This document shows, piece by piece, positions 8,111 to 10,621 of a stretch of 57,791 bases of DNA. The DNA lies in the IMG/VR virus record IMGVR_UViG_3300012676_000003, positions 1-57,791 of that record; one strand, written 5' to 3'. The translations under genes were made by a program, and so were the position numbers. The stretch is from a virus. Lineage: Duplodnaviria > Caudoviricetes. Each line of letters opens with the position of its first letter. The first letter of the stretch is position 1. The notes beneath the pieces are model-generated. The model was not told the origin of the DNA. It worked only from the letters and a program-made list of their open reading frames with translations, and searched no databases.

Positions 8111-8947
8111 TTAATTCGTTAAAACTGTTACTCCTCTTCCTATCAAAATTGCCTTGTTCGCCGCCCCAGCCCCAGATGGCGCTGAATTCGTTCCACCTTG
8201 CAAGTCAATCGTTCCCGATACATAACCCGCATTCGCCACGGCTTTTGCCAAAATTTCATCAACCTTAGCTTGCGTTAGAGCGCATCCGTTAAAGTTAATA
8301 TCCACACCATTGGCGGGAGAATAAGCCGTTAACGTAAAAGTGGTCAGCAGTGGAGAACTAACCTCAATGGGTCCACTTGCAAAATTTGGTGCAGAAAATG
8401 AAGTTAGAGAGCCATTTGAAAACAACGTTAGCTTAGTGCCTGTAAATACGGGCAAAGATAAGGTAGCAAGGGTTGTGTTTGACAGGGATAATCCATTACC
8501 ACCGCCAACAGTTTGAACCGTTTGAAGGCTTGCCAGATCAATGCTGCTTAAGGCGTTCGCATCTATGGAAAAGGAGCCAAGAACTGTTTCCAGTAACGGA
8601 AAGCTGGCTGTTGTTAGGTTGCTCCATCCATAAATTTGAAAATAGCCCGTTACGCCTCCAGCGCCTATATTTACCAAGTTTGGACACAGGAAATTCACTA
8701 CCCCAGTTAAGTCCCCAACGTCAAAGCCATTCAAATTCTGTGTGGGATTGTATTGGATGGTAGTTGCCCCTACTATTGGGTAGTAACTGAAACACCCCAA
8801 TTGCTCAGCCGGATTATCTCCGCTAGAAGTCCAAATGTTCTGCACCTCCAGCGTCCAATCCCCCGGAGTAGTGCTGTTGGCCCTCCAGATGTTGCCATTG
8901 GAAGTATCTTTGTAGACTTGGCCTACGAATTCAGGTGTGACAGGCAT
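8111..8947 (-). CDS. LRR/L-domain-like solenoid protein with N-terminal P(D/E)FVGQxY module
   Basis: LxxxSFPxLxTV repeats; paralog of 9237-10223 with shared C-terminal GTNxAPSG..GRGVTV. Confidence 0.75.
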   Translation of the reverse strand: MPVTPEFVGQVYKDTSNGNIWRANSTTPGDWTLEVQNIWTSSGDNPAEQLGCFSYYPIVGATTIQYNPTQNLNGFDVGDLTGVVNFLCPNLVNIGAGGVTGYFQIYGWSNLTTASFPLLETVLGSFSIDANALSSIDLASLQTVQTVGGGNGLSLSNTTLATLSLPVFTGTKLTLFSNGSLTSFSAPNFASGPIEVSSPLLTTFTLTAYSPANGVDINFNGCALTQAKVDEILAKAVANAGYVSGTIDLQGGTNSAPSGAGAANKAILIGRGVTVLTN

Positions 8948-9228
8948 TATGTCGGGTCTCCTACGCCTTCAAGGTTTTCACAGTCGCCTGGAACGGCACC
9001 ACCATTGGCCACTGTATCTAACAGGTAATTCATGATGCCTTGCTGGTCGCCTTCAGGGATGCCGCAATAGCACTTGCCTAGCGCCATAAGCTGCGAGGGA
9101 GTCTGACCAGCCAGCCCGGCCAGCTCCGCCAGGATTGCGATCAAGACCAGCTTCTGGTCGCCCTCATCGAAACAGCGGTAGCAAGTCGAAAGAGCCGCCA
9201 GTACTGCCGGATCTGCGCTTATAGCCAT
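8947..9228 (-). CDS. Small CxxC-family protein (paralog 3)
   Basis: Two internal CYxC-type units; ends CENLEGVGDPT. Confidence 0.8.
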   Translation of the reverse strand: MAISADPAVLAALSTCYRCFDEGDQKLVLIAILAELAGLAGQTPSQLMALGKCYCGIPEGDQQGIMNYLLDTVANGGAVPGDCENLEGVGDPT

Positions 9229-9236
9229 AGTATACT

Positions 9237-10223
9237 TTAGTTGTGGGTTACTGTTACGCCCCTTCCCTGAAGCGTGATGACATCAGCTACCCCTTGGCCA
9301 CTTGGTGCGGCATTGGTGCCCCCGAATAAATTTATGGTGCCCGAAACAAACCCGGCATTGGCTACACCCTGCTCCAAAATAAGGTTCACCGTAGACGCAT
9401 TCAAAGCATTTGCCTCAAAATTGTTAATGCTTCCATTTGGAGGCACCCACGCAAGCAGTGAAAGCGTAGTAAGTGCGGGATTATCATGGATCGACAGGCC
9501 ACCAGCAGTAACCATCGTTGATAAGTTAACGGTAGTTAGAATCGCGCACGCCGTTATGGTGAAAGTGCCAGAAACCGTTATAAGCGCACTGAGAGTTAAC
9601 GTCGCCAGAGCCGGAAGGGTGTCCAAGGTAAAGATGGGCACTGTTTCCAGAGCTGGAAAAGCTACCGTTGCCAGCAATGGGGCGTTGCTGATGCTTATCT
9701 GATCCGTTACATCGGTCAGGACTGAAAAGTTTACGGTGTTCAGCACGTCGCAATTGTCTATAACGAGAGCCGCGTTTATGGCCTGATCGATGGTTAATAG
9801 GTCGGTGCTGGTAAGGGTTTGAAGCGTAAAATCTACCTCAACACTAATTCCACCAGACGTAGTATTTTTTAACACGAGTGACGTAAACTCGTTGTTCTCC
9901 AGTAGCGCAAATTTCGCTCTGTTTAAGATGCACAGACCACTGGGTTGCCATTCAAGCTTCGAGTTCTGAAGTTCCAATGTCCAGTCACCTATGGTCTCGG
10001 TGTTTGAACGCCACAAATTGCCCGTAAGTATGTCTTTATAAACCTGACCCACAAAATCGGGCAGTACTACCGATGGGTCTCCCGCGCCTTGAACGTTTCC
10101 TACGGGTGCGCTCCCCGGTGTGCAAATTAGGATCCAATCGCCAATGGTCAGGCTATTGGCCCTCCATATGTCGCCTGTAAGGGTATCCTCATATACCTGA
10201 CCAATGAAATCCGGGGTGATCAT
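9237..10223 (-). CDS. LRR/L-domain-like solenoid protein with two PDF(I/V)GQxY modules
   Basis: Tandem N-terminal repeat plus LRR-like repeats. Confidence 0.75.
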   Translation of the reverse strand: MITPDFIGQVYEDTLTGDIWRANSLTIGDWILICTPGSAPVGNVQGAGDPSVVLPDFVGQVYKDILTGNLWRSNTETIGDWTLELQNSKLEWQPSGLCILNRAKFALLENNEFTSLVLKNTTSGGISVEVDFTLQTLTSTDLLTIDQAINAALVIDNCDVLNTVNFSVLTDVTDQISISNAPLLATVAFPALETVPIFTLDTLPALATLTLSALITVSGTFTITACAILTTVNLSTMVTAGGLSIHDNPALTTLSLLAWVPPNGSINNFEANALNASTVNLILEQGVANAGFVSGTINLFGGTNAAPSGQGVADVITLQGRGVTVTHN

Positions 10224-10621
10224 ACGTTCGGCGCACCCTCTCCTTGCAAGTTTTCACATAGTCCGGGCAATACTCCGGTATACGCTTCCCAGAATGAGCA
10301 CCAGAGCACAAACCAGATGGCTTTGATTTCCTGCAGACCAAGCGATTCCAACCTGCTGAAGCTCGATTGCAAAGATCCCGTGTCCAGATTTGCAAACCAA
10401 TCCTCTGGAAGCACGGAGATCATCGCCTTCAGCAAATCAACGTCATTGATGTTGCGCCATTTCTTGGAGCTTTGAATCAGCGACTCCAGATCCGTCAATC
10501 CTTGGCCTATCCCTAAAAGGCCCGTCAGGATTGTGAACATGTCGGTTGTCGATTCACACCGCAGACACGGGTAAATCGCCAATACCTCGCTCGGGTTGGT
10601 GCAATCAACGCCTCTGGACAT
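10220..10621 (-). CDS. Small CxxC-family protein (paralog 2)
   Basis: DCTNPSEV..PCLRC aligns with 10628-10969; ends CENLQGEGAPNV. Confidence 0.8.
   Translation of the reverse strand: MSRGVDCTNPSEVLAIYPCLRCESTTDMFTILTGLLGIGQGLTDLESLIQSSKKWRNINDVDLLKAMISVLPEDWFANLDTGSLQSSFSRLESLGLQEIKAIWFVLWCSFWEAYTGVLPGLCENLQGEGAPNV

Follow-up and report, generated by a model that had tools for sequence, protein, structure and literature searches.

The window analyzed here is the whole virus record IMGVR_UViG_3300012676_000003 (Duplodnaviria; Caudoviricetes), a stretch of 57,791 nucleotides (nt) that has direct terminal repeats and a completeness rated at 100%. Its minus strand carries two successive pairs of genes, each of which encodes a small protein with Cys-x-x-Cys helical units (the anchor) followed by a larger protein (the cargo), and in both pairs a protein module of ~45 residues is divided between the end of the anchor and the start of the cargo. 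The order of genes on this strand is 113 amino acids (aa; 10628–10969), 133 aa (10220–10621), 328 aa (9237–10223), 93 aa (8947–9228), 278 aa (8111–8947), 186 aa, approximately 66 aa, 241 aa, and 277 aa. The 133-aa anchor, called the adaptor in an earlier note on this DNA, has one Cys-x-x-Cys helical unit and ends with a TGA stop at 10220–10222, and the 93-aa anchor has two such units and ends with TAA. The 328-aa cargo that follows the first anchor has only the second half of the module in residues 1–35, one uncut module in residues 43–85 (9969–10097), and a predicted leucine-rich-repeat (LRR) solenoid with an alpha/beta cap from approximately residue 88 to 328. The 278-aa cargo, which is 38% identical to it, likewise starts with the second half-module only (residues 1–37) and continues as an LRR-like body with the same C-terminal cap.

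The 133-aa anchor ends in ...CENLQGEGAPNV, of which the last 12 residues (C-E-N-L-Q-G-E-G-A-P-N-V; 10223–10258) are its tail, and its stop codon shares the letters ATGA (junction 1; 10220–10223) with the start of the 328-aa cargo, MITPDFIGQVYED. The 93-aa anchor ends in a tail of 11 residues (C-E-N-L-E-G-V-G-D-P-T; 8950–8982), and its stop codon shares TAATG (junction 2; 8945–8949) with the start of the 278-aa cargo, MPVTPEFVGQVYKD. At both junctions the cargo gene is read in the –1 frame with respect to the anchor gene. The anchors thus end in C-E-N-L-x-G-x-G-x-P plus one or two residues, and the cargos start with M-x-(x)-T-P-x-F-x-G-Q-V-Y. The same stretch of the module is unbroken at residues 43–64 of the 328-aa protein (...NVQGAGDPSVVLPDFVGQVYKD). 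The earlier note had claimed that the two gene junctions cut one module at the same point and that this module is intact inside the 328-aa gene; the coordinates, protein ends, and overlaps are all as it described.

To place the halves on the module, a profile was built from uncut modules only and was scanned over all 1101 stop-to-stop frames of at least 30 aa in the window. The C-terminus of the 93-aa anchor aligned to profile positions 3–18 (E = 0.0034) and that of the 133-aa anchor to positions 5–18. The N-termini of the 278-aa and 328-aa cargos aligned to positions 21–54 and 20–54 (E = 1e-16 and 1e-17 for the two). Because the coordinates of the two pairs run 3–18 and 21–54 in one case and 5–18 and 20–54 in the other, the halves are complementary and abut each other. 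Read in gene order, the two proteins of a pair line up without overlap on a single continuous protein of other genomes, which is the pattern by which gene fusion or fission is recognized. The spacer between the two prolines of the module (from G-x-G-x-P to P-x-F-x-G-Q) is five residues long in 106 of the 119 uncut modules of stored relatives. Both window junctions give this five-residue spacer when the Met is counted (N-V-M-I-T and T-M-P-V-T), and the internal copy has a spacer of four residues. The gap-free match that the earlier note obtained by removing the stop and the Met thus holds only against the window's own internal copy.

The junctions were compared with Logan contigs of four runs (X1–X4) from four studies, all of freshwater sediment; one of these runs may be the source sample and contigs cannot show rare variants. 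These contigs cover 8000–10700 with 0 differences and no indel; none of the runs listed with the stretch is recorded as RNA. The junction at 8947 is bridged unchanged in all four runs, and that at 10220 is bridged with at least 31 letters on each side in three of them (X1, X3, and X4). Contigs, as distinct from raw reads, therefore hold no indel that would restore single open reading frames (ORFs) in the window. This agrees with the argument of the earlier note that two different junction sequences in one genome speak against a sequencing error.

The split is genuine at the DNA level. Relatives conserve it on the anchor side and on the cargo side, and each half keeps its part of the motif. There were 105 homologs of the 328-aa protein at E ≤ 0.001. 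Together with hits of the module profile these make up a set of 237 stored proteins, 173 of which carry the module. On the cargo side, 44 of these 173 begin with the second half, which takes the form M-(x)-x-[TS]-P-x-[FW] in every case and runs from profile positions 20/21; the whole module is at the N-terminus in 4 and internal in 125. As for the anchors, a search with a profile of their two-unit form found 228 stand-alone proteins (E ≤ 0.001). Among the best 120 of these, 14 have the tail at the C-terminus (C-x-N-x-E-G-x-G-[DE]-P-[TI]), 13 of them ending in G-D-P-T and one in G-E-P-I; P0253, a false positive of the regular expression, was left out of this count. Anchors that have one whole module and then the tail likewise stop at G-[DAP]-P-T (P0120, P0146, P0154, P0194, P0252, P0268, and P0350). 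Because the tail ends alike in plain and in module-bearing anchors, the cut lies at one fixed position of the module whatever lies upstream. The earlier note had counted conservation of the split in homologs among the points that bear on its proposal, and the cargo starts and anchor ends both show this conservation.

Scans of sequence collections returned 5 and 3 loci in viral contigs, for which alignments were the query, and 6 loci in metagenome contigs. A scan of viral contigs with the single 328-aa sequence gave no match, and a scan of genome contigs found no relative and hence no clue to the host. A single-sequence search with the 93-aa anchor matched only itself, so that a profile search was needed for this protein. 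Five further split loci from three distinct lineages came from this work (L005, L006, which is identical to L013, L012, L014, and L015). Compared with L013, L012 and L015 are ~96% identical and L014 is 79.6% identical; L005 has no blastn match to it. In all of them the anchor ends in ...C-x-N-V-E-G-A-G-D-P-T, the overlap is ATGA, and the cargo starts with M-S-V-T-P-[DE]-F or M-I-T-P-D-F. All of the tail residues C, N, E, G, G, D, and P stay unchanged across five anchors whose identity to those of the window is only 33–38%, and their codons vary synonymously (GGA/GGC, GAC/GAT, CCG/CCA). Seven invariant residues with synonymous codon changes indicate that the anchor tail is under constraint at the protein level. 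In the window, both tailed anchors precede a gene that starts with the half-module and both tail-less anchors (113 aa and 66 aa) do not; the pairing of tail and half-module is also seen in L005, L006, and L014.

Uncut forms are common as well. The anchor domain occurs in 50 of the 237 stored proteins, and 40 of these also have the module, 35 of which do not end in the first-half tail; ...CENLEGADSPLNVITPDFVGQVY gives examples in which the sequence is continuous. Fused homologs, for which the earlier note had suggested a search, were thus found, and the most informative case is that of two contigs from two metagenomes (L010 and L011). Both encode a single fused protein of 390 aa (...CVNVEGAGDPSVTPDFIGQ) where L013 encodes a split pair. 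The fused L011 is 99.5% identical to the split L013 over 1651 nt, with three mismatches and one gap, and the fused L010 is 97.4% identical to L013 over 3974 nt, again with one gap. This gap is a 5-nt indel at the junction, and both the TGA and the ATG come from it. The fused allele is probably derived, given that the closest relatives have the split state. A tree was made from the last 150 residues of 104 rows, namely the proteins of 200–600 aa with the C-terminal cap motif out of 240, with the other rows left out. In this tree, split, fused, and other N-terminal architectures are interspersed and 8 of the 101 inner branches are well supported. Two well-supported clades mix split and fused forms: one joins P0046 with L010 (support 100), and the other has six rows, five split and one fused (support 98).

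The module is widespread. Among 1.84 billion proteins its profile matched representatives of at least 1167 protein clusters at E ≤ 0.001 and 189 at 1e-10, with up to 12 matched stretches per protein and a period of ~46–48 residues in tandem arrays. Nine long module-bearing proteins were scanned against Pfam. Five had hits above the cut-off, which were a pectate-lyase-like beta helix (Pect-lyase/Beta_helix, in two proteins), BppU_N, PTR, and DUF5907; of the remaining four, three had no hit and one had a hit below the cut-off. By these co-occurring domains, the module belongs in fiber, tailspike, and baseplate-type proteins. None of 12 module sequences matched any Pfam-A family at E ≤ 1, and the DUF5907 match of P0110 (1548–1587) lies outside its listed module copies. 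We found no description of this split in the literature on DUF5907 and on gene fission in phage tail fibers, supplementary files not included. When the module profile was compared with the PDB by sequence, the sole match was a 10-residue chance look-alike in ribosomal protein S19 (E = 1.1). This stretch of chain 7jil_x reads M-I-T-P-D-F-V-G-Q-T and resembles the first residues of a cargo by chance. The module is also seen outside this phage group, in L007, L008, L009 (a contig named as a giant-virus metagenome-assembled genome), and L018 (a 241-kb viral contig); in L008 it stands at the very start of the protein, after 'SKSGTGAPTSVTPNFIGQ'.

Stand-alone anchors with two Cys-x-x-Cys helical units are most often 75 aa long among the best 120 of the 228. 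A comparison of the anchor profile with the PDB by sequence returned only heterodisulfide reductase subunit C (E = 0.4–0.7), and the ESM Atlas offered no usable feature hit for the 93-aa anchor, only helical look-alikes of a poor model with a template modeling score of at most 0.56. Judged from these sequences, two-unit Cys-x-x-Cys proteins seem to be small structural proteins that are common among uncultured phages.

The AlphaFold2 model of the 328-aa cargo has a mean predicted local distance difference test score (pLDDT) of 92.7, with values above 95 over residues ~110–328. Its N-terminal half-module is modeled as strands at residues 10–12, 19–22, and 30–34. After a linker of lower confidence come a short strand or bridge at 44–46 (V-Q-G), the strands of the uncut module (61–64, 70–73, and 81–85), and the solenoid. 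In the model of the fused L010 protein (mean pLDDT 73.9), the anchor helices are at 35–62, a strand or bridge is at 94–96 (V-E-G), and strands follow at 110–113, 119–122, and 130–134. These two independent models predict that the anchor-side half of uncut modules is structured rather than a free linker.

The top matches of the 328-aa body among solved structures are all LRR proteins, with Z scores of 16.2 to 14 and root mean square deviations of 3.1–4.1 over 185–211 residues; the best of them (model residues 83–328) has a Z score of 16.2 and a deviation of 4.1 over 207 residues. On the basis of this model, the cargo body is assigned as an LRR solenoid. Pfam gave weak matches below the cut-off for this protein (Beta_helix, and Recep_L_domain at E = 0.061), and the 278-aa cargo matched no Pfam-A family at E ≤ 0.1 and no PHROG. 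Foldseek found no PDB match for the L010 model within E ≤ 0.001, and the rows beyond this threshold were weak LRR ones. Against BFVD it gave five matches at this threshold, four of them uncharacterized or PKD-domain proteins of uncultured phages and one an uncharacterized protein of Synechococcus phage S-CAM8. The matches of these fold searches are dominated by the LRR body and so say nothing about the folds of the module (residues 1–88) or the anchor. A complex prediction for the 278-aa cargo and the 93-aa anchor, made with separate alignments and without controls, scored 0.00 in both runs and is evidence in neither direction. As a side observation, L015 lacks 588 nt inside the cargo gene compared with L013 (4158–4745 of L013), with flanks that are 96–99.8% identical, which suggests that the number of LRR units varies between strains.

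We think it probable, with some reserve, that the two anchor/cargo pairs arose by a conserved gene fission within a docking module, that they are translated separately, and that the anchor tail docks on the cargo. The cut would fall between a short first strand, left on the anchor as C-x-N-[LV]-[EQ]-G-x-G-[DA]-P plus one or two residues, and a three-stranded remainder, which starts the cargo as T-P-x-F-x-G-Q-x-Y-x-D...G..W...W. In many fiber-like phage proteins the module serves as a repeat or links an N-terminal anchor to a distal binding domain. When it is cut, each gene would be translated on its own, with the ATGA or TAATG stop/start overlap coupling the two, and the tail of the anchor would then dock on the incomplete module of the cargo. 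The Cys-x-x-Cys anchor would hold the complex on the virion and the LRR body would bind its target, presumably on the host surface. The conserved junction may double as a boundary for the reshuffling of anchors and cargos. Because the genes adjoin a capsid-like gene and bare 75-aa anchors are abundant, the site on the virion could be either head or tail. No recoding is needed for this explanation. The earlier note had proposed a split docking domain in which the C-terminal strand of the adaptor completes the N-terminal fold of the cargo. The uncut homologs, the conserved tail, and the strand predicted on the adaptor side are consistent with that proposal; the half-module is modeled confidently without the strand.

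Several observations weigh against docking after fission. That anchor and cargo bind each other is something that we infer throughout. The half-module of the 328-aa cargo has a pLDDT of 81–88 without the anchor-side strand, so this strand may be unnecessary for folding. The strand region itself is modeled with moderate confidence (block pLDDT of 77 in the 328-aa model and 63 in the L010 model), and the strand was called without coordinates, so that its pairing partner is not seen. The match of the 133-aa C-terminus to the module profile (E = 0.49) is marginal alone, the next best noise being at E = 0.93. Of the best 120 stand-alone anchors, 106 are tail-less and 49 of these are exactly 75 aa long. 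Since most of the anchors listed lack the tail, the family has a life of its own without cargo. Virion attachment has to be set against the fact that the 133-aa and 93-aa anchors match no Pfam-A family at E ≤ 0.1 and no PHROG. The 44 split cargos and the tailed anchors are related to each other and may have few events behind them, and fission and fusion events are not countable because the tree is poorly resolved.

Some of these points would be explained if the fission was merely tolerated and the halves no longer cooperate, so that the tail is a mere remnant and the cargo either has another attachment point or acts independently of the anchor. The confident modeling of the half-module alone and the 106 tail-less anchors would fit this, as would the 10 of the 50 anchor-domain proteins in which the anchor is joined directly to an LRR body without the module. 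However, a leftover would be expected to decay or to be trimmed. Instead, the seven tail residues stay invariant through synonymous codon changes in anchors that are only 33–38% identical to those of the window, the same terminal residue is found in 13 of the 14 tail-bearing clusters, and in the window, L005, L006, and L014 the tail is found exactly where the next gene starts with a half-module. We therefore regard it as unlikely that the tail is a leftover.

It is also conceivable that the junction matters chiefly at the DNA level, as a shared boundary where homologous recombination swaps cargo genes behind anchors in the manner of mosaic tail-fiber genes. Loci that have otherwise diverged resemble one another over approximately 60 nt around the junction, and both the interspersed architectures on the tree and its two well-supported mixed clades would be expected from such swapping. 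Yet shuffling events cannot be counted on a tree with 8 of 101 inner branches supported, no recombinant breakpoint has been demonstrated at the junction, and recombination needs no stop or start codon, so the split itself is left unexplained. As the main meaning of the junction we consider this rather improbable. A role as a DNA-level boundary is compatible with fission followed by docking and could be the reason why the split persists.

The earlier note had offered programmed –1 recoding as an alternative to a docking domain, and frameshifting or other recoding would give both fused and unfused products. At both junctions the downstream gene is in the –1 frame and this frame is open for ~7–11 codons before the ATG, and a fusion protein is evidently viable, given the natural fused form. 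However, any ATGA or TAATG overlap necessarily puts the second gene in the –1 frame, and a hand-picked ORF list of this genome has such overlaps in 11 of its 42 adjacent gene pairs (8 ATGA and 3 of the TAATG type). The last codons of either anchor gene contain no X XXY YYZ heptamer or homopolymer run, and none is shared with L005, L006, and L014; inspection by eye of the two window junctions, L005, L006, and L012–L015 found no slippery heptamer present or shared. Downstream of four junctions, the folding of the 90 nt is no better than that of shuffled sequences (z = –1.20, –0.42, –0.71, and –0.94 against 200 shuffles each, with pseudoknots not modeled). A shift anywhere except at the last codon would swap the conserved motif for an Arg-rich sequence, and in L006 in-frame read-through hits another stop after two codons. 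With no slippery site, no unusual downstream structure, and overlaps that are usual in this genome, programmed recoding is not supported and we judge it highly improbable.

In each window cargo, the ATG at the overlap is the first start codon in its frame. A Shine-Dalgarno-like motif is found 6–16 nt upstream in 13 of 50 hand-picked gene starts, and the host probably relies little on such pairing. GGAG occurs inside the Gly codons (G-x-G) upstream of both cargo ATGs, as AGGAG 10 nt away at junction 2 and further away at junction 1. We considered this GGAG as a latent ribosome-binding site that fixes the position of the cut, and dropped the idea because only those 13 starts have such a motif; it probably means little.

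An error of sequencing or assembly, or a recent inactivating mutation, that broke single genes could draw on the fact that fused and split alleles of near-identical strains are separated by a 5-nt indel, but it is already refuted as far as contigs can show, and we give it practically no credence, because the junctions are identical in contigs of four runs and four studies, one genome holds two different junction sequences, the split state is found in diverged relatives (L014, 79.6% identical to L013) and in dozens of protein clusters, and the insertion gives a precise stop/start overlap and not a frame-shifted remnant.

A broader form of the docking explanation is that the module provides a general plug and socket of environmental phages. 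The strand and G-x-G-D-P-T tail on Cys-x-x-Cys anchors would plug in trans into any cargo that starts with the three-stranded remainder. LRR binders would be interchangeable at one virion site, a 5-nt indel would switch between covalent and non-covalent attachment, and a docking code would extend across phage fibers. This is a tentative idea that we see as possible rather than probable.

The surrounding genome adds some context. No tRNA genes were found in the window, and few of its proteins match known families; among those that do are a subtilase, collagen repeats, glycosyl- and methyltransferases, an exonuclease, and a replication initiator. Pfam and PHROG searches with ten genes of 5840–12696 gave nothing above the cut-off. 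Just upstream of the anchors is a 456-aa ORF (11326–12696, minus strand) whose nearest ESM Atlas neighbors are viral clusters, one of which has Phage_capsid_3 on 18% of its members. This is a lead, not a proof, that the 456-aa protein is a capsid protein. In the window, L005 (capsid-like gene at 2366–3919), L006 (2179–3729), L010, and L014, the order is a capsid-like gene, then an acidic protein of ~100 aa, and then the anchor genes.

Two more anchor-like genes flank the pairs. The 113-aa protein (10628–10969, minus strand) is a paralog of the 133-aa anchor (34% identity over residues 5–112); it lacks the module tail and the next gene lacks the module start. The same is true of the 66-aa protein (7348–7548, minus strand), which starts at an ATG that overlaps the stop of the 186-aa ORF and has one C-Y-Q-C unit followed by a Phe/Gly/Asp-rich, low-complexity tail (...GDFFFGDPDAPFIFGDPDAGFGFGG). 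Short proteins with one Cys-x-x-Cys unit and a low-complexity tail are also found in L006 (4497–4706) and L014 (1059–1265), where the tail is acidic and Gly-rich. These proteins look like the same anchor bearing a different, non-globular payload. The window ORFs at 5840–6673, 6619–7344, and 5458–5889 (minus strand) overlap their neighbors by 50–55 nt as listed, and their true start codons are probably further downstream.

If the halves re-associate, they would form a compact natural docking pair, with a tail of 11–12 residues and a module of ~35 residues, that is used both fused and split. Such a pair might be of use for hanging binding domains on phage particles and for predicting which neighboring genes form one receptor-binding complex in uncultured phages. 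Two sizeable unannotated families without a Pfam match at the thresholds searched are described here, the fiber module (1167 proteins) and the Cys-x-x-Cys anchor (228 stand-alone hits). The fused and split strains are a clean case of a single 5-nt indel turning one gene into two putatively coupled genes, or back.

When two proteins are encoded separately in one genome and as a fusion in another, they tend to interact physically, which is known as the Rosetta stone principle. Like such pairs, the anchor and cargo of the window are adjacent, probably coupled in translation, and align end to end with single proteins of relatives. Unlike them, the cut is inside a small conserved module and not at a domain boundary, and both states occur in strains that are 99.5% identical and differ by the 5-nt indel. 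In the donor-strand exchange of chaperone-usher pili, a strand complements a partner in trans. The anchor would similarly supply a strand to the incomplete small beta unit of the cargo, and in the models the anchor-side half of uncut modules bears a strand, but there is no homology and the three-stranded unit of the cargo is modeled as stable without the strand. Tailed phages also use a programmed –1 frameshift of the G/GT type in the tail assembly chaperone. As there, two overlapping ORFs with the second in the –1 frame lie in a structural gene cluster; unlike there, there is no slippery heptamer, stimulatory structure, or conserved shift site, and the second ORF has its own ATG at the overlap.

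The closest functional parallel may be with the branched receptor-binding proteins (RBPs) of the podophages KP32, K11, and KP34 of Klebsiella, which, according to the published account, have an anchor domain, a branching domain that is part of RBP1, and a conserved docking peptide that is part of RBP2 (PMC13352976). In that account, as in the arrangement that the window genes suggest, separate products are joined on the virion by a short peptide that docks on a partner domain, with an N-terminal anchor, distal specificity, and exchangeable parts (PMC13352976). Searches of Pfam and PHROGs detected no sequence or family relation, so that the window pairs at most work alike and are not members of that system. 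Unlike the N-terminal peptide of a KP32-type RBP2, the short peptide of the window is the C-terminus of the anchor and is half of a module that is uncut in relatives, and the distal part is a predicted LRR solenoid instead of a depolymerase. By analogy, the anchor/cargo pairs would be akin in function to known modular receptor-binding systems; what sets them apart is the cut inside a module and the fused/split polymorphism in near-identical strains.

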